A stretch of DNA of 41,896 nt from a virus (lineage: Duplodnaviria > Heunggongvirae > Uroviricota > Caudoviricetes): the IMG/VR virus record IMGVR_UViG_2512047041_000010; one strand, given 5' to 3'. Below the pieces are notes generated by a model. The model was not told the DNA's origin and ran no database searches. It saw only the letters and a list, made by a program, of their open reading frames with translations. Shown here piece after piece: positions 4,709 to 36,700 of the stretch (the stretch's first letter is position 1; the number at the start of each line of letters is the position of its first letter). Both the position numbers and the translations under genes were made by a program.

Positions 4709-7700
4709 TTAACGTTCTTCCAGAGACTGAATCCGCTCTTTTATCTTATCCATTTCTCTGCGCTGCCATGCTGCCTCGATATAGAATAAGAGATCAGGTC
4801 TGACCCCCCATCTAGATCCTGCTGGCGTTATTTCAACGCGCTCAATGATGTCTTCCATTACCATCACTGGATTATCATCCTCATCAACAATGATGCTCCC
4901 GTCATTATCAGTCAGCGGCATTTCCCTTTGGCCAGTAATGACGTCATCATATACTGCGGGATAATCGTCATAGCAAAGAAAGGCATAGCGGCATGTTGTG
5001 CTTTCTTCTTCCATGAGTCCGTGAGAAATAAGAACATCACGAAGTTGCTGCGCGATTACACCATGATGTATCCTCGCCCCTTCTTCCCCCTTTATAGCGA
5101 CAGCGTTCAGCCATTTATAAGCGATATACCTGACGTCACCCCAGGCATCCAGCAATGCTTCGTCAGGAGAGACCGGCTCTGTCTTTAATGTTCCGTCACT
5201 GGTAACCACAGGATTGGAGCCAAGATAAACTGTCGAGAACCTGTTTCCCGGACCACCAAGAGCATTTACATTATCAAGATAAGGTTTAACATCTCCGTTC
5301 TCAAAAAGATGTTCGAGTGCGTTATATACCGCGCGACGTGGAGTACTGCTTCCGGAACCATGCAACGTTATCATTGCACCATCTGCTGAAGACGTTGTTT
5401 CACCGCCGCTAACGATTAATCTCTGAGCGGTAACATCATCAGACGGTACTTTCTTCGCAATAATGGCGTAATTACCCTCAAGTTTGACTTCCGCGCGAAC
5501 TTGTCCTGATGTACCTGCATGGACAGTCAGTGACTGGACGGCAACATCATCTGTGAAATCAACGGGTACAGGAACCGTCCTCACGCCTGACGTCGACATA
5601 AAAGTAGGAAGCGTTCTGTTAGGAGTGGCTCCGTAGACAAAATCCCTTGAAACAAATTCTTCCTGTTTAATTTTCACCCTGAAACAATACAAATCAGCCG
5701 GGTGACCATCGTGAACATAAGGATATTTTCTGTTGTTATCCCCTATGCTCCATGGGTTTAGAAAGTCTTCCCCACCGAAAATGTAGTACAGCCAGTTGTC
5801 TTTGATACAAACTGAACCAACACCAACCGCAGAGTTAACTATTCCGCCCTGATAAATCTGATCAGTAACATTAACCCACTCTACATTATCCAGACTCCAC
5901 TCATTGACGTTAACTCTGGTCATAAATGTTCTTGGATAATTTCCTGCATAACGGTTATCAGGCTCTCCTCCTTCCCACTCACCAAATGCGCGCTCACTGC
6001 CAAAAATAACCAGCTCATCGCCAACTTTGGCAAAAGGAAGGTTTGAGTGATGAACATTATTTGGGAAGCGAAGAGAATTCCATGATGTACCTAAATCAGA
6101 GCTTCTGTGCAATGAACTACCGGGTTGAGTACTTAATGTCCCCCTGGTCGTCAGATACAGAATGCCATCATAATATTTTACACATGGCTCAGATGCATTC
6201 GCCTCATATTCTGCAGGTATGCGTCTGCGAACAAAGCTACCAGGAGAACCGAAAGCATCAGAGAAATAGAGTATCCCAAGCTCGCGTGGACCAATATCAC
6301 CATTATGGTAGCCAACAGCAAAACTGTTATCGCTAATCGTCGCAAAACTGTGAATCTCAGTAACAGGAGTGCTTCCGTCAACAAAAGAAGGAATAGTTCC
6401 AAGACTGGTTTTTCTCCATGGTGACGAGTGAAATGATGTGCCAAAACTCCAGTATCTACCCTCGTTATTCTGATCCACATCCTGGGTATTTTGCGTCGTA
6501 ACTGTAAAGGTATTTTTATCAATAACAGTAGTCACCGTCATATTCCCGGTAACACCTGTAACACCAGAGTTTGAGAAGTTGACAAAATCACCAGCAAATA
6601 ATCCGTGATCAGTAATGCGAATATAAGCGACTTGCTGATTTGCTGCTTTCGTTATACCACCATAAACGCGAAGGCTGCGACTCATTGGGCGATCCCACAA
6701 CTCTGCAACCTGCAGTTTATTTCCGCTCACGGTCCGCGTCTCAATTACAGCAAAAAGGCGATTTCTGACAACCCCCATACTCATGCAGTGATAGTTAACT
6801 GTGGGATAGTTTTCATGTAAATCTGTAAGCCATTCCGGCGTTGTCCAGGTCTTCCCGTCATCTCCTGAGCGAACCCATGCAACATGGAGGTTATTTACAC
6901 CATGGCGGTCTCCAGCCATAAAAGGCGCATAGATGACATTGTCATATACAAACGTTTTATCCTGCGTCCAGGCGTTGTACCACGGTGTATCTGTAATTTT
7001 AAATAACTCTCCCTGGATAAAATCTTCAGAAGCATAAAAAAGAGGCTGGCCCGGTATTCTCTCAAATAAAAAACGAGCATTTTTAAATCGACTGACATCC
7101 GGAAGAGTTGATACTTTAAAAGTAAGCCCTAATCCGTCAATTTTATAACCTGGAGATGAGGCTTCAAGGCACGCGCTTATTGCAGTGGAATCGTCATTTA
7201 TACCATCACCAACAGCTCCAAAATCTTTGGGGCTAATAGCATCACGCATTTTATCCTGGAACGTTCGGTACACAGCCCCAGAACCATACTGAATAAACCA
7301 ACCAAAACCACCAACAACCCCGGCGATTGCAGCATCGACATAATTACGCATTGAGCGATTATTTACAGCGTCCTGCTCAAATGATGGATCTGCAAGGTTA
7401 GAAATTTTGTTTTGCTTTGCATCGTAATATTTTGCAAGCAAAGATGGTTTCATCAATGCACGTCTGAACCACCCAAAACATTGCTGGATCAGCATCGTCA
7501 GGTAGTCAAAGGCATCTTCATGCACTTCGGGGAAAAATTTTCCCTGATTGCGAAGGTCTGTCTCCTGCACTACATCAAGCACACGATCTATCGTAATTCG
7601 CCATCCAGTAGCAAGCGGAGACGGAAGAACCACAGAACCGCCACTATAAGTGCCCGCCCCAGTTACCGTATAACCGGTATCCAGAACCAATTCTGTTACG

Positions 7701-7828
7701 TTCCCGTTCAGGTCAGACACCTGAACAACCAGGTCTGATTTTCTGAAAATTCGAAAAGTATACGGAAACGATGTCGTAACGCCGTTACCGGTGTATTCGT
7801 TGTGGTCAACTTCGGTTGAGACCGTCAT
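4709..7828 (-). CDS. tailspike/tail fibre with sialidase-like beta-propeller domain and C-terminal peptidase S74 intramolecular chaperone domain (putative endosialidase)
   Basis: 1039 aa. N-terminal block MTVSTEVDHNEYTGNGVTTSFPYTFRIF recognised as a phage tail-fibre anchoring domain; two perfect Asp-boxes (SGDDGKTW, SSDLGTSW) and an xRIP motif (FERIP); C-terminus (SDGTLKTEPVSPDEALLDAWGDV...ARIHHGVIAQQL) resembles the self-cleaving chaperone of endosialidases and T5 L-shaped tail fibre. Confidence 0.7.
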   Translation of the reverse strand: MTVSTEVDHNEYTGNGVTTSFPYTFRIFRKSDLVVQVSDLNGNVTELVLDTGYTVTGAGTYSGGSVVLPSPLATGWRITIDRVLDVVQETDLRNQGKFFPEVHEDAFDYLTMLIQQCFGWFRRALMKPSLLAKYYDAKQNKISNLADPSFEQDAVNNRSMRNYVDAAIAGVVGGFGWFIQYGSGAVYRTFQDKMRDAISPKDFGAVGDGINDDSTAISACLEASSPGYKIDGLGLTFKVSTLPDVSRFKNARFLFERIPGQPLFYASEDFIQGELFKITDTPWYNAWTQDKTFVYDNVIYAPFMAGDRHGVNNLHVAWVRSGDDGKTWTTPEWLTDLHENYPTVNYHCMSMGVVRNRLFAVIETRTVSGNKLQVAELWDRPMSRSLRVYGGITKAANQQVAYIRITDHGLFAGDFVNFSNSGVTGVTGNMTVTTVIDKNTFTVTTQNTQDVDQNNEGRYWSFGTSFHSSPWRKTSLGTIPSFVDGSTPVTEIHSFATISDNSFAVGYHNGDIGPRELGILYFSDAFGSPGSFVRRRIPAEYEANASEPCVKYYDGILYLTTRGTLSTQPGSSLHRSSDLGTSWNSLRFPNNVHHSNLPFAKVGDELVIFGSERAFGEWEGGEPDNRYAGNYPRTFMTRVNVNEWSLDNVEWVNVTDQIYQGGIVNSAVGVGSVCIKDNWLYYIFGGEDFLNPWSIGDNNRKYPYVHDGHPADLYCFRVKIKQEEFVSRDFVYGATPNRTLPTFMSTSGVRTVPVPVDFTDDVAVQSLTVHAGTSGQVRAEVKLEGNYAIIAKKVPSDDVTAQRLIVSGGETTSSADGAMITLHGSGSSTPRRAVYNALEHLFENGDVKPYLDNVNALGGPGNRFSTVYLGSNPVVTSDGTLKTEPVSPDEALLDAWGDVRYIAYKWLNAVAIKGEEGARIHHGVIAQQLRDVLISHGLMEEESTTCRYAFLCYDDYPAVYDDVITGQREMPLTDNDGSIIVDEDDNPVMVMEDIIERVEITPAGSRWGVRPDLLFYIEAAWQRREMDKIKERIQSLEER

Positions 7829-7931
7829 GTTAAATCTCCAGATAGTCGCAGCACCCGTTGCGCCGCATATCTGGTTATTCTATTACCTGAAAAACCACAT
7901 ATGGATAGAAAGACTGTAAATACGAATAGAT

Positions 7932-7948
7932 ATTACCTTTCAGGTAAT
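7932..7948. promoter_or_regulatory. operator-like 17-bp palindrome ATTACCTTTCAGGTAAT
   Basis: Perfect inverted repeat of the ATTACC-N5-GGTAAT family, upstream of the LexA box and the small antirepressor-like gene; same core as the site at 27053. Confidence 0.55.
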
Positions 7949-8023: not shown

Positions 8024-8281
8024 ATGCAGCAGTATCACTATCCACTGGAAGACGGATTTACCGAAAGGATTCACACGCCGGGAGGCGTCAGGTCACTGGT
8101 GGAGGGATCGCACTTGATGAAATTACTCCGGGATCTCGATAAGGATGGATTTAATGTCGATGGCCCACTTGCCGAACTGACTGCACTGATTAACTACGTC
8201 ACCAGCTCACAGATGTCTATGCAGGATCTGCAAACACATCTCGACTATTGTGCCGAACAATTACGAAAACAAACCAGATAA
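8024..8281 (+). CDS. small antirepressor-like protein (paralogue of the C-terminal domain of the downstream Bro-N antirepressor), probably SOS-inducible
   Basis: 85-aa ORF with SD GGAGAAG; about 35-40% identity by eye to the last ~70 aa of the 8597..9307 product (shared IHxPxGV, LMxLL, DGxxVxG, QTH blocks); LexA box immediately upstream. Confidence 0.6.
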   Translation: MQQYHYPLEDGFTERIHTPGGVRSLVEGSHLMKLLRDLDKDGFNVDGPLAELTALINYVTSSQMSMQDLQTHLDYCAEQLRKQTR

Positions 8282-8311
8282 GATTTGAAATTACCAATAG
8301 GAGTGCTTATA

Positions 8312-8328
8312 TTTACCTTTGCGGTAAA
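8312..8328. promoter_or_regulatory. operator-like palindrome TTTACCTTTGCGGTAAA
   Basis: Same TTACC-N5-GGTAA architecture; nested inside a larger inverted repeat AGGAGTGC...GCACTCCT. Confidence 0.5.
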
Positions 8329-8360: not shown

Positions 8361-8440
8361 CGGGCACTGGCAAAATCCAGTGCCGGGATTGGCGTCCCGG
8401 GTTACTAAGTGGCGCATACCACGCCAGACGTGGTTTTTTT
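8361..8440 (+). ncRNA. putative small structured RNA upstream of the antirepressor gene (possibly c4/antisense-type regulator)
   Basis: No ORF; stem-loop GGCACTGG/CAGTGCC, second stem CCGGGA/TCCCGG, then intrinsic terminator CCACG-ccaga-CGTGG + TTTTTTT (8419..8440). Carries ACTAAGTGG, which recurs at the antirepressor RBS, with its complement CCACTTAGG in between. Boundaries are approximate. Confidence 0.3.
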
Positions 8441-8596
8441 ATGCGTTAAGCACAGCTATATCCGAATTATGGTGGGCTGGGCAGGGGTCCGAAAGGACGC
8501 CGGTACCACTTAGGCCGGTACGCCAACCTTGTCCAGTTCACCACCAGTAATTGGCGTTGCGGTGGTGATTAAAATCACTAAGTGGAGATAACCACC

Positions 8597-9307
8597 ATGG
8601 CTAATGCTCAAACTGCCATCTTCAAATTTGAATCTGTTAACCCTATCCGTTCCATCATTATCGATGGCCAACCATGGTTTGTAGCCCAAGACGTTTGTAG
8701 TGCGCTGCGTATCCAAAACGTCACCCAAGCACTTGAAAAACTGGATGATGATGAAAGGTCTATGTTCAACATAGGGCATGAACATCGTGCAATTTTTGAC
8801 AGCCGAGTAAAAGAGATCAACATTATCTCCGAGTCAGGCCTCTACACACTGATCCTCCGCTGCCGCGACGCAGTGACACCAGGCACTACCCCCTACCGCT
8901 TTCGTAAATGGGTTACAGGTGAGGTTCTTCCTCAGATCCGCCGCACCGGAAGTTACATTAAAAACTCGCTCCCGCAGGAAGAGCGCATAAAGATGGTTGC
9001 CGACCAGGTAGCCAGCGCCACAGCATCAGCAGTGATGCAGGCAATGAAGGTAGAGAACAAAACCTACAGCGCCCCGCTGAAGCCCGGCTACCGCAGCCTG
9101 ATTCACTCGCCGTCTGGTGTTCTCGGCCTGACGGAAAACTCACTGCTGATGAATCTGCTGAACCAGTTACAGGAAGACGGGCACGACGTATCGGGCGCGG
9201 CGGCGGAGGTGACCACCATGTTCTGCTACATCGTCGGTGTGAGTAAATGCCTGCGTGATATCCAGACCCACGCGGAATACATCAACGACAAGGCAGGGTT
9301 CTTCTGA
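8597..9307 (+). CDS. phage antirepressor (Bro-N N-terminal domain plus C-terminal Ant domain)
   Basis: Start at ATG 8597, preceded by SD GGAGA; N-terminal FESVNPIRSIIIDGQPWFVAQDVCSAL is Bro-N/KilA-N-like; C-terminus homologous to the 8024..8281 product. Confidence 0.75.
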   Translation: MANAQTAIFKFESVNPIRSIIIDGQPWFVAQDVCSALRIQNVTQALEKLDDDERSMFNIGHEHRAIFDSRVKEINIISESGLYTLILRCRDAVTPGTTPYRFRKWVTGEVLPQIRRTGSYIKNSLPQEERIKMVADQVASATASAVMQAMKVENKTYSAPLKPGYRSLIHSPSGVLGLTENSLLMNLLNQLQEDGHDVSGAAAEVTTMFCYIVGVSKCLRDIQTHAEYINDKAGFF

Positions 9308-9378
9308 CGGGCGGCGGCACAGGGATGTGCCTTTAAATAATTCTGTACAGATTGCAGACTGGGGGTGAATAGCGTACT

Positions 9379-9395
9379 ATTACCTCAAGGGTAAG
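9379..9395. promoter_or_regulatory. operator-like palindrome ATTACCTCAAGGGTAAG
   Basis: TTACC-N5-GGTAA family site about 60 bp upstream of the 9454 start codon. Confidence 0.5.
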
Positions 9396-9453
9396 AAAGC
9401 ATTTTTAATCTTCCCTTCAAAACGCGTCCTGTAGCCAAACATGGGAGGACGAA

Positions 9454-10086
9454 ATGAGAACAAATACAACAAGAAAAGCGATGCCATACATTATCCCAGA
9501 AGCAGATTTCGATAGAAAACTGAACATGTCTGAGAAGAACACTAGTCACACCGAAAGCTACTTAGCGAAAGGTGTGGTTGATTTCGTTCTTCCGGGATTC
9601 ACAACACCTTATGGTTATCGCCTTGTAAAATCTTGTAATGGCGATCATTACAGAATGATTACTACCAGCGATACTCCAGAAACGGTGTATGCGGTTAAGT
9701 TAATCTTTCGGGAAGATATCGTCGAAGCCAAAAGAACATGTACGCAGATCATGGTATGGCGTACGCCTAATGTTATTCATGACCGTGCTGTTCATGGTTT
9801 GCCTCAGATTTTTTTTCAGTTCTTCCTAGAGCAATATGCGATCGTTGTATCTGATGAGCAACAAACAATCGATGGGAGAAGATTCTGGGAAAGAATGATT
9901 TCTTGGGCTATAAACACCCCAGGATATAATGTATACGTTTCAGATGGCTCTGAAGAAGATAGACCTCTTAGCTTCATGACATCATGGGATGATTTCTATA
10001 GCCAGTGGGCTGATTTCTGTTGGGGCAGTGATAAAGATGTGCATACCCACAGACTACTGGTTATAAGCAAAGATAAACTGCATTAA
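9454..10086 (+). CDS. hypothetical protein, 210 aa, no recognisable domain (AT-rich moron)
   Basis: Strong SD GGGAGG 7 nt before the ATG; followed by an intrinsic terminator; lower GC than flanking structural genes; no motif I can assign. Confidence 0.6.
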   Translation: MRTNTTRKAMPYIIPEADFDRKLNMSEKNTSHTESYLAKGVVDFVLPGFTTPYGYRLVKSCNGDHYRMITTSDTPETVYAVKLIFREDIVEAKRTCTQIMVWRTPNVIHDRAVHGLPQIFFQFFLEQYAIVVSDEQQTIDGRRFWERMISWAINTPGYNVYVSDGSEEDRPLSFMTSWDDFYSQWADFCWGSDKDVHTHRLLVISKDKLH

Positions 10087-10090
10087 TAGA

Positions 10091-10113
10091 AGCCCGCAGC
10101 GCGGGCTTTTTTG
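10091..10113 (+). terminator. rho-independent terminator
   Basis: AGCCCGC-agc-GCGGGCT followed by TTTTTT. Confidence 0.75.
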
Positions 10114-10184
10114 TGGACGAAACAAAAGTCAGTGCTACACTCATTGACGCCACATTGAGGTGGCTTATAGATGGAAATTTCACA

Positions 10185-10346
10185 ATGAAAAAAGCATTTG
10201 CTGCACTGTTCGTTTTGTTGTCTCTGGTAGCTTCAACTCAGGCCTTTGCCGGTCGTTGTCAGCACGACAGCGACACTGCTGCTGACGGCTCCCGCTGCGG
10301 TGGGCGTTCTGCGGATTCCCGCCCGGGTGGCGGTGGCATTCGTTAA
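10185..10346 (+). CDS. small secreted protein (53 aa; signal peptide plus ~31-aa Gly/Cys-containing mature peptide)
   Basis: MKKAFAALFVLLSLVASTQAFA signal peptide with AxA cleavage motif; followed by hairpin GGCCGCGAAAGCGGCC; weak SD, so confidence is moderate. Confidence 0.4.
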   Translation: MKKAFAALFVLLSLVASTQAFAGRCQHDSDTAADGSRCGGRSADSRPGGGGIR

Positions 10347-10369
10347 AAACAAGGCCGCGAAAGCGGCCT

Positions 10370-10381
10370 GTGACATGTCAC
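10370..10381. repeat. perfect 12-bp palindrome GTGACATGTCAC (copy 1 of 3)
   Basis: Identical 12-mer also at 28088..28099 and 30353..30364; overlaps the stop codon of the minus-strand lipoprotein gene and abuts a GC hairpin. Confidence 0.8.
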
Positions 10382-10758
10382 GCAACGCAATTATTACCGC
10401 GCCATGTAACATTTTTAATAATCTTATCAGCACCAAACTCAACGTAAACAGAGCAACTGAAATGGAGTGTATAACCGCCATCAGTTGTTGCGTATGTGTT
10501 TGAATATATAGTATTACCAATTAGATTAGACGTAGTATTATACGTTGTGGTTTGTGGTACGTTATAACTACCAGAGCTTGAGTAAACATACACTCTGTTT
10601 CCATCTGGAGATGTAAGCTCTCCCTGAGGATACCCCCACTGCTGAACCATTGCGTCTATACTCTGCCCGCGCCACGTAAGCATATTTCTTTCAAACTGTG
10701 CAGCTGACTGGCATCCAACGAGAAGCATAAATCCAAAAATCAAAAATACTTTTCTCAT
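10378..10758 (-). CDS. phage lipoprotein (possible superinfection-exclusion/entry-exclusion type)
   Basis: Start taken at MRKVFLIFGFMLLVGCQ (lipobox LVGC) with SD AGGGGT; Thr/Ser/Tyr-rich mature part; sits between virion genes and the moron island. Confidence 0.6.
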   Translation of the reverse strand: MRKVFLIFGFMLLVGCQSAAQFERNMLTWRGQSIDAMVQQWGYPQGELTSPDGNRVYVYSSSGSYNVPQTTTYNTTSNLIGNTIYSNTYATTDGGYTLHFSCSVYVEFGADKIIKNVTWRGNNCVA

Positions 10759-10977
10759 AATTACCCCTATCATGGAAAAACAGCACCAATCCACAAATTA
10801 ACTAGTTATTTTATTATTCTTCCGAACAATACAATTCCGAATACTACAAAGCCGAACCATGCCGCTGCACGCAACAGAGATTCCAATTGAAACCCATTTT
10901 TATCAAAATGTATGAATAGCATAAAAACGCTGCACATATTAGTACAATAAAAGTTATTTGAACCATCATATCTCCTT

Positions 10978-13452
10978 TTATTGCGGAGTGACATCCTGTG
11001 GTCGCCACCAGTATGTCTGGTTAAACTCTTTCTTCGAACGTTGCTCCATTTTACGCAAATAGCCTGGTGAAAAATACTCCTGCATCTGGTTAAAGATCAT
11101 GTGATCGAGAGCCGCCTTCAAGTACCAGAGATTCGCACCAGGCATCAAACCTTTCCCCAGCTTCACCAGATCACCACCAGTCTGCTCACTCTTCCCTTCC
11201 ACAGCATTTAACGGTATGCCCTGAGCAATCTTCACTACGTCATCAACCAGACCAGCTACCGGGCCAAGCATCGACGCCAGCGCGCCGCTTCCGTACCTAG
11301 TGTGATCTGACAATAAAAAGTCACCGTAAAGGCCAAGACCACCACCTTTCAGTAGAGCACCAAGCCAGAATTTTGCGGCATCTTCTCCTGTCATCTCTCG
11401 AGGATTACGACCAGACGCAAGGTCGTTAAGTTGCTGCGACAAAGCGCCAAGAATGGTCGTACTGGCAATAAACGTCGCAATATATGCCGCACGCCCACCA
11501 GCAGACGGCATACCCATAGCGCGTGACCAGTGACGCATAACAACCGAGATAGGGAACGATTTAAACAGGAAAACACTTCTCGTTAATTCACCTTTCCATG
11601 TTCCACGCTGAATACCAGAACCGGTTATCAGTTGCTCACGTGCTCCCGGTGTAATAACAGCCATATCAACTTCTTCAGTTACGGCACCGAGCAGTTTACG
11701 CATTGCCTCAAATTTCACGCGTTCAGGCTCACCAAGATGTTTAACTGCTGAATCAGGGATACGCATAATGCTTTCCGGTGTCAGCATCGTATTATTACCG
11801 TTCCCCCAGTCCTCCTGTTTCGCCAGCTTCCATACGCTCCAGTCTGTGTCAGTAATCCCTTTGCTTTTCAGGATACGAAAATCAGAGTCATCGAGGCTAC
11901 GAAGGTCTGGTGTCCGTGACACTACTTCTCCCAGGCTTCCCATCATGGTTACGCCATAGGCGCGCTTGTGCGCATCTGACCATGCTGTAAGCCCACTGGC
12001 ACGCATTACCGCCGTTGCCGCCCAACGAGACACTGACGGCCCCATATTATCCATCGCCCAGCGGTTAACGCTGCCAAGTAGAGATTCCATCGCCAGACCA
12101 GCGCGGCGCGCCCGCGCAAGTTCTGTACGGTTCGTTGGGTCCATAGCTTCAAGCTGGTTGCGGAATAACTGGTTCACTGGAAGGTTGGTAACCTTCGCAG
12201 ACAGATACATGGTTCCAAGATCAGAGAACGATGACAGCAACGCGGATCCGAGTCTGCTGGCAACCAGCCAGTTGCGGATATTGTCAGACCATCGCGCGAT
12301 GTGCGGATTCGCTACAGGCTGTGTCTTTCCGGAAATAAAGTTGTACAGATTCTCTGTGTTGTTCGCCAGCCGCTCGACTTTACCGGTTTTACTCGGGTTA
12401 GCTGTTGCCGTTTCTGCCTTCACCTGATCAAGAAGAGAGCGGAAAACATGATCGGGGTTTGGGCCATATGTTTCCACCAGTGCAATATCTTTACTGATAC
12501 CTTCCAGGTGACCGACCATGATTTCCCATAGAGAGCGATCGCCATAAAGTTGCTGATATTGCAGATAGGAATCTGCATCTTTGAAATGTATCTGTCGTGA
12601 TGCATTACCACGGTTAGCACGTGCGCCGGAAATTCGCATTCCGGTATCAGTAAGCTTATTCAGCCCACCAGTAGCGATCGTGTTATAAGCCTCTCCAAGA
12701 AATGAAGACAACTCGGCATCGTTCATCAGTTGTCCATCGGCTCGGATATAATATTTGCGATCCAGCCTACCTATAACATCGCTAACCCACTTATCCTTTG
12801 ATACTGCCCCAACCTTTTCCATAGAATGATGTTGAGGGATCCCCCAGTTTTCGAGATAGCCAATGTCCCCACCAGCATCATTAAACCGGCGGCGCAGCAG
12901 CTCTGTAACTTCTCTCCACGCCTTAGCACCGTTTCTTGCTTTAGCATTGCCAGTAGTTTGCCCCCGCATTTCATATACCAGGTCACGTACGCCCGCTTCA
13001 TCTTCAAACAGACCAAAAAAGCGAGGATCAACTGCTTCGAATGCCTCCTGCAATTGACTCAATGCATAATCACGGGTGGCTTTTGTTCTGGATTCAACAG
13101 AGAGGAAATTAGATTTACCGTCTGCATTAAAAGCTATAGTACGGTTAAGAGCGCCAAGTTTCCCATCAGCCCCTTGATAGCTATTGATAAATTTATCCAA
13201 TCTCTGACGCGCGGCTATAGTGAGAGCCACACGACGTTTCTTTAATGCCGCTTCTCGCTGTAATTCTTCAGATGCCAATTGTGCTGCTCGATATAGCCGC
13301 TCTGATTCGGAAAGTTGTCGCCACGACATAGGGTCATCACGAGCAATGGAGCGCATATTTCGATAAATGCGGTCTTCAATGTTCTGTATTTCTCGCGCCG
13401 TTAACATGCGCTGCGCCGCCTGCTGAACCGCTTGTATACATTCCTGTCTCAT
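10978..13452 (-). CDS. internal virion/ejection protein (T7 gp16-like position, distal part)
   Basis: 824-aa ORF last in the run of large virion genes; assignment by position in a gp13-gp14-gp15-gp16-like series. Confidence 0.5.
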   Translation of the reverse strand: MRQECIQAVQQAAQRMLTAREIQNIEDRIYRNMRSIARDDPMSWRQLSESERLYRAAQLASEELQREAALKKRRVALTIAARQRLDKFINSYQGADGKLGALNRTIAFNADGKSNFLSVESRTKATRDYALSQLQEAFEAVDPRFFGLFEDEAGVRDLVYEMRGQTTGNAKARNGAKAWREVTELLRRRFNDAGGDIGYLENWGIPQHHSMEKVGAVSKDKWVSDVIGRLDRKYYIRADGQLMNDAELSSFLGEAYNTIATGGLNKLTDTGMRISGARANRGNASRQIHFKDADSYLQYQQLYGDRSLWEIMVGHLEGISKDIALVETYGPNPDHVFRSLLDQVKAETATANPSKTGKVERLANNTENLYNFISGKTQPVANPHIARWSDNIRNWLVASRLGSALLSSFSDLGTMYLSAKVTNLPVNQLFRNQLEAMDPTNRTELARARRAGLAMESLLGSVNRWAMDNMGPSVSRWAATAVMRASGLTAWSDAHKRAYGVTMMGSLGEVVSRTPDLRSLDDSDFRILKSKGITDTDWSVWKLAKQEDWGNGNNTMLTPESIMRIPDSAVKHLGEPERVKFEAMRKLLGAVTEEVDMAVITPGAREQLITGSGIQRGTWKGELTRSVFLFKSFPISVVMRHWSRAMGMPSAGGRAAYIATFIASTTILGALSQQLNDLASGRNPREMTGEDAAKFWLGALLKGGGLGLYGDFLLSDHTRYGSGALASMLGPVAGLVDDVVKIAQGIPLNAVEGKSEQTGGDLVKLGKGLMPGANLWYLKAALDHMIFNQMQEYFSPGYLRKMEQRSKKEFNQTYWWRPQDVTPQ

Positions 13453-27031: not shown

Positions 27032-27069
27032 TTGACATTTAACGCACAAATTATTACCTTTCAGGTAAC
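27032..27069 (+). promoter_or_regulatory. putative promoter (-35 TTGACA) with overlapping operator ATTACCTTTCAGGTAAC
   Basis: Consensus -35 hexamer at 27032..27037; the operator (27053..27069) covers the -10/+1 region; oriented toward the tRNA. Confidence 0.5.
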
Positions 27070-27390: not shown

Positions 27391-27467
27391 GTGGCATTAG
27401 CTCAGTTGGACAGAGCAACCGCCTTCTAAGCGGTTGGTCGCAGGTTCGAATCCTGCATGCCACGCCA
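27391..27467 (+). tRNA. tRNA-Arg (anticodon UCU)
   Basis: 77-nt cloverleaf: acceptor GTGGCAT/ATGCCAC, anticodon stem ACCGC/GCGGT with loop CTTCTAA, T-arm GCAGG-TTCGAAT-CCTGC, encoded CCA end. Confidence 0.9.
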
Positions 27468-35980: not shown

Positions 35981-36565
35981 ATGAAAAGTATCCAGGACGT
36001 CCGCAGGCAAAATCTCAACGACTTGATCGACCGTGAATTCAATGGTGTTCAGACGCGGATGGCAGAAAAACTTGGAACTCAGGCAAATCTGGTAAACCGC
36101 TGGGCTCTTGGCAAGAAGGTTATCGGCGACCAGGTTGCGCGAAAAATTGAAGCTGCCGCCAATAAACCACGTAACTGGCTTGATATCGATCGCTCGCTTT
36201 CTCAGGAAGGTTTTCAGCCTGTCGGCCCAAGCGACATTGGTCAGCTGGCGGCTCACAACCTGGAACGCTGGATGAGCGAAAGCCGCGACCTTTCAACACA
36301 GGGAAAACTTCACCGCGCATCCGGCGTCGCCCAGGTGACAATCAGCCGCCTGTTAAACAATGAGGTCAGCGTTTCCATTTCCACCCTGGAGAATGTTGCA
36401 TCCGCATTCGGGCGTCACGGCTATGAATTACTGATTCACCCGCACGACCCTGCGACCATCAACTATGACCGCTCGCGCTACGCATTGTTACCCGAAACCG
36501 AGAAAGCAAAGATCGAAAGTTACATTGAATTTGTCATCAACCAGAACGAAAAAAGCAAAAAATAA
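35981..36565 (+). CDS. CI-like prophage repressor, double-HTH type without LexA-like autocleavage domain
   Basis: 194 aa with two Cro/C1-type HTH segments (QTRMAEKLGTQANLVNRW and GKLHRASGVAQVTISRLL); no Ala-Gly/Ser-Lys peptidase S24 signature; flanked by operator clusters on both sides; own terminator downstream. Confidence 0.6.
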   Translation: MKSIQDVRRQNLNDLIDREFNGVQTRMAEKLGTQANLVNRWALGKKVIGDQVARKIEAAANKPRNWLDIDRSLSQEGFQPVGPSDIGQLAAHNLERWMSESRDLSTQGKLHRASGVAQVTISRLLNNEVSVSISTLENVASAFGRHGYELLIHPHDPATINYDRSRYALLPETEKAKIESYIEFVINQNEKSKK

Positions 36566-36621: not shown

Positions 36622-36700
36622 ATTACCTTACGGGTAATTTTTTTAACTCATATCTATTGACACCAAACCAAATAAGCATAATTATTACCTCAACGGTAAC
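36622..36700. promoter_or_regulatory. OL/pL-like region: operators ATTACCTTACGGGTAAT (36622..36638) and ATTACCTCAACGGTAAC (36684..36700) flanking a promoter (-35 TTGACA at 36657..36662)
   Basis: Perfect and near-perfect TTACC-N5-GGTAA palindromes; consensus -35 with an ATAATT -10 candidate overlapped by the second operator; drives the rightward recombination/integration operon. Confidence 0.6.

Follow-up and report, generated by a model that had tools for sequence, protein, structure and literature searches.

A predicted GNAT-fold protein of the family phrog_1349 is one of several alternative cargos in a variable slot with a putative repressor operator in an epsilon15-like Escherichia coli prophage

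The IMG/VR record IMGVR_UViG_2512047041_000010, a stretch of DNA of 41,896 nucleotides (nt) that we refer to in its full length as the window, is an epsilon15/phiV10-like (Uetakevirus-type) temperate podovirus integrated in Escherichia coli. The present study is concerned with its plus-strand gene at 9454..10086, which encodes a 210-amino-acid (aa) protein of the family phrog_1349 with a predicted GNAT-like fold. According to our analysis, the gene is nothing out of the ordinary, being a phage accessory gene that occupies a variable slot. It is one interchangeable cargo of this hypervariable slot, which provides a promoter, a putative repressor operator over the -10/+1 region and a terminator, with the cargo bringing its ribosome binding site and open reading frame (ORF). 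The prophage repressor would most likely hold the cargo gene off in the lysogen, and the gene would be transcribed together with the neighbouring antirepressor gene early after infection or at induction. Its product may then act as a stand-alone transferase that modifies a molecule of the host or of a competitor, leading to host takeover or counter-defence. We favour this explanation, of a repressor-gated GNAT-fold accessory enzyme that is expressed early or at induction and serves the phage, and hold it tentatively.

The 210-aa ORF is a real gene under purifying selection. The ratio of nonsynonymous to synonymous substitution rates (dN/dS) is 0.07 in comparison with an 83%-identical copy; dS was saturated in the other pairs, including those with 84%-identical copies. 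A Shine-Dalgarno (SD) site, GGAGG, is found at 9444-9448, 5 nt ahead of the ATG, and the G+C content of the ORF is about 0.41, compared with 0.50-0.58 in the flanks. A strong SD site and an AT-rich composition had already been reported in a first-pass annotation made from the sequence, and both were recovered here. The product is a soluble protein of 24.6 kDa with a pI of 6.0.

The borders of the slot are sharp. Against phage TL-2011b the breakpoints lie at 9394/9395 and 10090/10091. In six further E. coli prophages that were aligned at the slot, the left flank is kept through the palindrome TTACC-N5-GGTAA inclusive, homology ends right after GGTAA, and the right flank resumes exactly at the stem of the terminator. 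As read from these alignments, the swappable unit is 9395-10090, and the promoter and operator, the terminator and a downstream peptide gene are conserved backbone. Across related E. coli prophages this position is occupied by at least seven different cargos, and one lineage carries a deletion there. Apart from the 210-aa gene, the slot contains a 59-aa ORF with a YafO-family toxin, a DUF4760 protein, a 108-aa ORF with a DUF2335 protein, or one of three more unnamed gene pairs. The 'empty' slot of E. coli O157:H7 TT12B is a deletion joining GGCGGCGGC (9311-9319, just after the stop codon of the antirepressor gene ant) to GGCGGTGGC (10326-10334, at the end of the peptide gene). This deletion between short repeats removes the promoter, the cargo and nearly the whole peptide gene. 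The first-pass annotation had taken the region for a moron hotspot and had proposed a comparison with related prophages; that comparison, with conserved flanks and different genes between them, bears out the proposal more strongly than its author could have known.

The promoter is conserved in seven prophages with different cargo and the terminator stem in six, which assigns promoter, operator and terminator to the backbone and not to the cargo. The cargo-specific 5' leader, including the SD site, extends over 9395..9453 on the plus strand: homology to TL-2011b stops at 9394, and with the phage LLS copy of the gene, which occupies another slot, nucleotide homology begins only 37 nt before the ATG, at 9417. 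Judged by these boundaries, a cargo is essentially an SD site plus an ORF, for which the backbone supplies promoter, operator and terminator. The earlier statement that the gene has its own promoter and terminator is correct in that both are present, with a palindrome in the promoter, but they belong to the slot and not to the gene. The terminator is an intrinsic one (10088..10112, plus strand; AAGCCCGC-AGC-GCGGGCTT followed by a T-run), with a hairpin at 10088-10110 of -15.3 kcal/mol (z -2.9) and six U after it, so that a terminator following the 210-aa gene, as previously annotated, does exist. The loop varies between AGC, GCT and GTT among the prophages with different cargo. When 10091-10109 was compared with three related prophages (L013, L014 and L015), AGC was found in some, its reverse complement GCT in others and GTT in one, which looks like a flipped loop.

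The slot promoter (9352..9394, plus strand) is composed of the -35 hexamer TTGCAG (9352-9357), a 17-nt spacer and the -10 hexamer TACTAT (9375-9380); it scores 8/12 and was not called in the consensus scan. The operator palindrome TTACCTCAAGGGTAA (TTACC-TCAAG-GGTAA) covers 9380-9394, and T9380 is common to palindrome and -10 hexamer, which agrees with the operator-like palindrome that the first-pass annotation had placed in this promoter. With one mismatch allowed, TTACC-N5-GGTAA is present in 13 copies in the window, compared with 0.85 in shuffled sequence (shuffle maximum 3). The window scan located these copies at 7933, 8313, 9380, 27054, 30242, 30260, 33518, 33580, 35526, 35863, 35911, 36623 and 36685. 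Two of them lie between a divergent cro-like ORF and a 194-aa helix-turn-helix (HTH) repressor ORF (35981-36565; Pfam HTH_3), two further copies flank the other side of the HTH gene, and the remaining ones are found at operon starts. Judged by these positions, the palindrome marks a repressor regulon that seems to take in the switch region and the early operons as well as the beginning of the virion operon and each of the three promoters in the ant region. The promoter of the antirepressor gene (8285..8327, plus strand; TTGAAA-17-TATATT, 10/12) bears its operator, TTACCTTTGCGGTAA, at 8313-8327, and a strong early promoter ending at 36685 (TTGACA-17-AATTAT) has the same overlap of -10 hexamer and operator. 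At 9380, 8313 and 36685 alike, the -10 hexamer and the palindrome share one T, with which the former ends and the latter begins.

The RefSeq record of epsilon15 annotates the same sequence (ATTACC-N5-GGTAAT) as 'repressor, lysogeny' binding sites, and one of the annotated sites is located in the equivalent region beside the tailspike gene. In the related prophages L013 and L014 the sequence around the palindrome has diverged and the palindrome itself is kept. Because the operator overlaps the -10/+1 region of the promoter, the palindrome recurs in the cI/cro-like switch, and epsilon15 carries this annotation, we infer that the cargo gene is repressed in the lysogen. The cargo promoter thus probably belongs to the immunity regulon; it would be shut off in a lysogen and become active, together with the antirepressor, once the phage infects or is induced.

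The protein had been regarded as an orphan in the first-pass annotation, a view that can no longer be upheld. It matches phrog_1349, a family without assigned function in PHROGs v4, over its full length (residues 1-210 against profile positions 1-210 of 210; E 3e-113). It has 63 relatives of 37-100% identity in Enterobacterales, which are named, where any name is given, 'hypothetical protein' or 'phage protein'. When a profile was run against 1.84 billion cluster representatives (clusters at 50% identity), 892 were retrieved at E <= 0.001. From these distant relatives, 132 cluster representatives were aligned with the window protein, and phrog_1349 was matched by 133/133 sequences of this broad family alignment. 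The models of Pfam, NCBIfam and PADLOC gave zero matches to the 210-aa protein, and Pfam gave none to any of the 133 sequences. The earlier remark that no motif could be assigned to any family thus holds for these three collections. Searches of the literature returned nothing on this family. A single cluster, P0152, has an MqsA-type zinc-ribbon toxin-binding domain (MqsA-N) fused in place of the HTH domain, and the distant relative P0135 shows a weak SRA-like (SAD_SRA) N-terminal match (E 0.002, below the Pfam threshold). The latter was discarded as a functional clue, being sub-threshold and without confirmation in the PDB. A T4_MRH match on the fusion relative P0137, which otherwise has no informative match, was likewise set aside as weak and not recurring across the family.

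An AlphaFold2 model of the 210-aa protein, built on 41 sequences, reached a mean predicted local distance difference test score (pLDDT) of 81.4 and a predicted template modelling score (pTM) of 0.78; residues 1-11 have a pLDDT below 50 and the rest is confident. A structure-based search for remote homologues, as suggested in the first-pass annotation, returned GNAT-like matches: the top Foldseek matches in the PDB are all GNATs, and weak ones (best E 0.011), and AtaT, TacT2 and KacT are among the structural matches. In BFVD, uncharacterised phage proteins come up as close structural relatives (E 1e-10 to 1e-5), and the matches grade into proteins labelled 'NAT_SF domain' or 'Acyl-CoA N-acyltransferase'. 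In the profile searches of PDB sequences, a match to a de novo TIM barrel (E 0.02) was dismissed as spurious. The secondary-structure order of the model was tested against the GNAT order beta1-alpha1-alpha2-beta2-beta3-beta4-alpha3-beta5-alpha4-beta6(-beta7), and fits it with one extra strand and a split alpha3 of two helices. The model resembles GNAT acyl-CoA N-acyltransferases in three structure searches, which supersedes the earlier designation as a protein of unknown fold, and it suggests with moderate confidence that the protein has a divergent GNAT-like fold.

The most conserved positions among the 133 sequences are Y79, Q98, W102, R103, D134, Q137, T138, G141, F144, W145, A152 and Y161, with Q98, W102, R103, D134, Q137, T138, G141, F144 and W145 conserved at 77-98%. 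Most of the conserved polar and aromatic residues are located on the predicted elements beta4, beta5 and alpha4. In GNATs generally, these three elements make up the cofactor cleft. They have been described as forming this cleft also in Mom of phage Mu (PMC7261163). From the fold and the position of these residues we infer that the protein may be catalytically active, and its target would then be a component of the host or of a competing element.

The occurrence of the gene elsewhere was surveyed in 29 non-redundant loci, which come from prophages of the podo-, sipho- and myovirus types and from phage-plasmids. It stands alone in 29/29 loci, and no conserved or recurrent small partner gene was found in them. 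The spacer to the upstream ORF is about 120 to 440 nt long except in one locus (L047, about 3 nt); downstream of the gene it ranges from about 10 to 380 nt. Neighbours that recur are limited to antirepressors of the BRO-N or P22 type and Arc-like repressors, found in about 13 of the 29 loci and on both podo- and siphovirus backbones. Phage LLS and Enterobacter prophages have the gene after the lysis cassette. Two distant relatives are found in long co-directional arrays with small unannotated genes, an RNase T-like exonuclease, HSP20 and a zeta-toxin-like kinase, and these arrays look like early regions of large lytic phages. Cultured phages with family members are rare: tblastn of distant members recovered phage LLS, two Phi05 fragments and a Burkholderia jumbo phage, and BFVD adds a relative in the Agrobacterium jumbo phage Atu_ph07. 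Members were further found on 47 plasmids, in contexts with no consistent neighbourhood. On the Shewanella plasmid pHD6416-NDM the family member adjoins umuD/umuC-like genes, and on a 97-kb Citrobacter phage-plasmid (with phage tail proteins and ParA) it is located within the tail genes on the opposite strand. Among complete E. coli genomes, about 92 of 5426 (about 2%; including APEC O1 and ST131-type strains) contain the 210-aa cargo, and the slot flanks are present in about 530.

Several observations weigh against a repressor-gated enzyme that serves the phage. Its repression was deduced from the position of the operator, and a single operator may leak. The hypervariability of the slot and its alternative content resembling a toxin-antitoxin (TA) system, with YafO, would equally fit a defence hotspot. 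Lambdoid prophages carry the 210-aa gene after the lysis genes, between lysis and terminase genes, which is the classic location for lysogenic conversion. As to the fold, GNAT sequence models (Pfam Acetyltransf_*, NCBIfam) do not match the 210-aa protein and those of Pfam match none of the 133 family sequences, and searches of PDB sequences with two profiles found no relative. The canonical form of motif A, Q/R-x-x-G-x-G/A, which is the pyrophosphate-binding loop between beta4 and alpha3, is absent; a degenerate G115 (59%)-x-A/P117 (72%), followed by FFxxLL, is seen where the long helix starts, and R103 (83%) lies 12 residues upstream.

The first-pass annotation had considered superinfection exclusion, defence or host modulation. 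A gene for defence or superinfection exclusion would be expressed by the prophage, through leaky or operator-independent transcription in the lysogen, and its enzyme would disable incoming phages. Such a role accords with a slot as hypervariable as known defence hotspots, in which many relatives hold a YafO-family toxin with a small upstream ORF, with the lambdoid position between lysis and terminase genes, a frequent site of conversion genes, and with a self-contained single gene of low G+C content. It requires expression from the resting prophage, however, and the operator over the -10/+1 region of a promoter that is part of the immunity regulon therefore points against it. PADLOC-DB v2 moreover gave no defence-model match for the 210-aa protein, its neighbours or ten alternative cargo proteins, and relatives occur in jumbo and apparently lytic phages, where protecting a lysogen makes no sense. 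We consider this explanation rather unlikely, and favour an enzyme in the service of the phage because expression early or at induction is predicted beside the antirepressor. Host modulation is still plausible, but during infection or induction. The prediction of a phage-serving enzyme also has to be weighed against a GNAT-fold protein that lacks catalysis and binds a protein or ligand, for example as a further antirepressor-like factor, or as one that modulates the decision between lysis and lysogeny, under co-regulation with Ant. The frequency of antirepressor and Arc genes as neighbours in unrelated phage types, the lack of a recognisable CoA-binding motif of canonical form and the toxin-binding domain that replaces the HTH domain in P0152 are all consistent with a binder. 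Yet the near-invariant D134, Q137, T138, W102 and W145 at the predicted beta4/beta5 splay resemble an active or cofactor site more than a variable binding surface, and the gene is also found without an ant or arc neighbour and on plasmids. Its co-location with ant may be incidental, as immI-like regions are general hotspots for accessory genes, and we think a binder unlikely.

Two further explanations start from GNAT enzymes of known activity. The matches to AtaT, TacT2 and KacT, together with an alternative cargo, YafO, that is a translation-targeting toxin by family annotation, could indicate a GNAT-type toxin whose acetylation of aminoacyl-tRNA serves host shut-off or abortive infection. 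Against this, there is no adjacent antitoxin, the gene being solitary with upstream spacers of about 120 to 440 nt in 28/29 loci, and the protein is 40-60 residues longer than toxins of the TacT/AtaT/KacT type; we would be surprised if it were such a toxin. Still harder to reconcile with the data is a Mom-like enzyme that modifies nucleic acid and shields phage DNA from restriction. Mu Mom is a GNAT-fold accessory enzyme of roughly 230 aa encoded by a single phage gene (PMC7261163, PMC13219725), and P0135 has the weak SRA-like N-terminal domain described above. That SRA match is sub-threshold and unconfirmed against the PDB, no Com-like partner is present, and the 210-aa protein is mildly acidic and without a basic tail. 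Homology to Mom was rejected on an hhalign probability of 0.2% and a BLASTP E of 4.9, a comparison of limited sensitivity made with a single Mom sequence, and we regard a Mom-like function as very improbable.

A phage-serving GNAT-fold enzyme would have precedents. The 210-aa protein is like the GNAT superfamily in the element order predicted by its model, and differs from it in having no match to a sequence model and no Q/R-x-x-G-x-G/A loop, and in its extra strand and two-helix alpha3. AcrVA5 is a GNAT encoded by phages and other mobile genetic elements that acetylates Cas12a (PMC9114340, PMC11021501). The likeness is that of a stand-alone GNAT-fold protein of mobile elements acting for the element on a host protein, which is the mechanism we think most likely here. 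AcrVA5 is much smaller than the 210-aa protein and, unlike it, a recognisable acetyltransferase; there is no link to CRISPR in the present case, and the resemblance is by analogy only. Mu Mom, too, is encoded by one accessory gene of comparable length in the phage, and its divergent GNAT fold was first seen by structure prediction only (PMC7261163, PMC13219725). The 210-aa protein has no detectable sequence or profile similarity to it, and there is no Com regulator. Regulation differs as well, with a repressor operator at the 210-aa gene as opposed to control by Dam, C and Com in Mu. AcrVA5 and Mom are thus precedents for the use of GNAT enzymes to phages, not relatives of the 210-aa protein. 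The record of epsilon15 notes an HHpred match to GNAT acetyltransferase for gp13 (11122-11586), an internal virion protein, and epsilon15-like phages may therefore contain a second, structural GNAT-like protein alongside the cargo.

The slot itself resembles moron or accessory slots known from other temperate phages, for example the immI/sieA region in P22-like phages or the ant region in P1. Conserved flanks, a different G+C content, the strand opposite to the virion genes, the position beside ant and swapping among relatives are common to all of them. It differs from P22- and P1-type slots in that promoter and terminator belong to the slot, and in that the immunity operator predicts expression in the lytic phase and not from the prophage. 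A further likeness to P1-type immI is found in the leader of ant in the window, where Rfam models matched at gathering level IsrK (8364-8440, plus strand, 67.7 bits) and C4 antisense RNA (8465-8548, plus strand, 66 bits). Both lie inside the 270-nt leader between the operator-bearing promoter (8285-8313) and the BRO-N start at 8582, which suggests that ant of an epsilon15-like phage is under antisense control of the P1/P7 immI type.

Downstream of the cargo, the 53-aa gene at 10185..10346 (plus strand; backbone, outside the swappable unit) encodes a peptide with predicted export that matches phrog_14503 over its full length (E 2.3e-40). Its 57 homologues are named 'transmembrane anchored protein'. 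In its product, an MKK n-region and a hydrophobic core lead up to an AFA|G cleavage site, after which comes a predicted mature peptide of 31 aa. In an alignment of 13 homologues, the signal part is variable and the mature 31 aa are near-invariant, with all 18 invariant columns, including both Cys, in the mature part. The peptide gene is identical in prophages carrying other cargo and is missing wherever the 210-aa gene has a context that is not epsilon15-like (siphovirus, lambdoid or myovirus). The two genes are hence not one unit, and the two-gene cassette of the first-pass annotation is not borne out. The same annotation had described an independently terminated secreted peptide, of which the predicted signal peptide stands but not the terminator: the G+C-rich hairpin at 10352..10369, between the peptide gene and a convergent lipoprotein-like gene, has its U-run on the minus strand only and therefore serves as terminator of the latter. 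This lipoprotein-like ORF (10378-10794, minus strand; phrog_3716) has the lipobox LVGC after MRKVFLIFGFML, and the virion genes lie beyond it on the minus strand. It is a second variable position, at which unrelated ORFs of 46, 98 or 186 aa are found in related prophages.

Directly upstream of the slot is the BRO-N antirepressor gene (8582..9307, plus strand; Pfam Bro-N E 5.5e-20; phrog_130, anti-repressor Ant). A small plus-strand ORF before it (7901/8024-8281; phrog_450, E 1e-47) corresponds to the C-terminal domain only of Ant-type antirepressors, and the operator copy at 7933 is upstream of its RefSeq-style start at 8024 and within the longer ORF that starts at 7901. The endosialidase tailspike gene (4709..7828, minus strand) precedes this plus-strand ant block. 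The cargo accordingly lies beside an antirepressor and on the strand opposite to the tailspike and virion genes, in line with the first-pass annotation. A link between the cargo and the K1 endosialidase tailspike (capsule modification) was rejected, as the same cargo is present in an O25b:H4-ST131 chromosome and in other genera, and among the prophages sampled, slot contents differ between two with an endosialidase tailspike, and the same DUF4760 or other cargos are found beside other types of tailspike. Several E. coli chromosomes contain the 1.1-kb region at 100% identity, and APEC O1 contains it at 99.8%; the O25b:H4-ST131 chromosome shows 98.6% identity over the portion in common, and phages TL-2011b, phiv142-3 and phiV10 match the locus partially. 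Elsewhere in the window, an IS3-family insertion sequence is situated at 953-2166, by the lysis genes near the window start, with an ALIL frameshift pseudoknot at 1234-1350 (116 bits), and the operator copy at 27054 is closely followed by a tRNA gene at 27391-27464 (plus strand; Rfam, 73 bits).

Taken further, phrog_1349 could be an unrecognised branch of the GNAT fold that phages and plasmids bring into play as infection or establishment begins and that covalently inactivates a component of host immunity or housekeeping. It would then form a new enzymatic anti-defence class, the slot beside ant would be a hotspot for counter-defence and takeover, and its other cargos (DUF4760, DUF2335, the unnamed pairs) would likewise be effectors; we offer this as a speculation that is probably wrong in at least some part. 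The significance of the finding would gain sharply if an enzymatic counter-defence activity were true, and if the protein is inactive or dispensable, the gene is an ordinary hypothetical accessory gene. The operator moves the expected time of action from lysogeny to lytic growth. This calls for caution against reading every prophage hotspot as a defence island, since the regulatory sequence here argues for use in the lytic phase. If our reading holds, the fold assignment gives a testable activity to a large unnamed family of about 890 clusters at 50% identity. The slot itself is a natural experiment, in which one promoter, operator and terminator are combined with at least seven cargos in otherwise near-identical prophages, and it is suited to the screening of early-expressed phage effectors.

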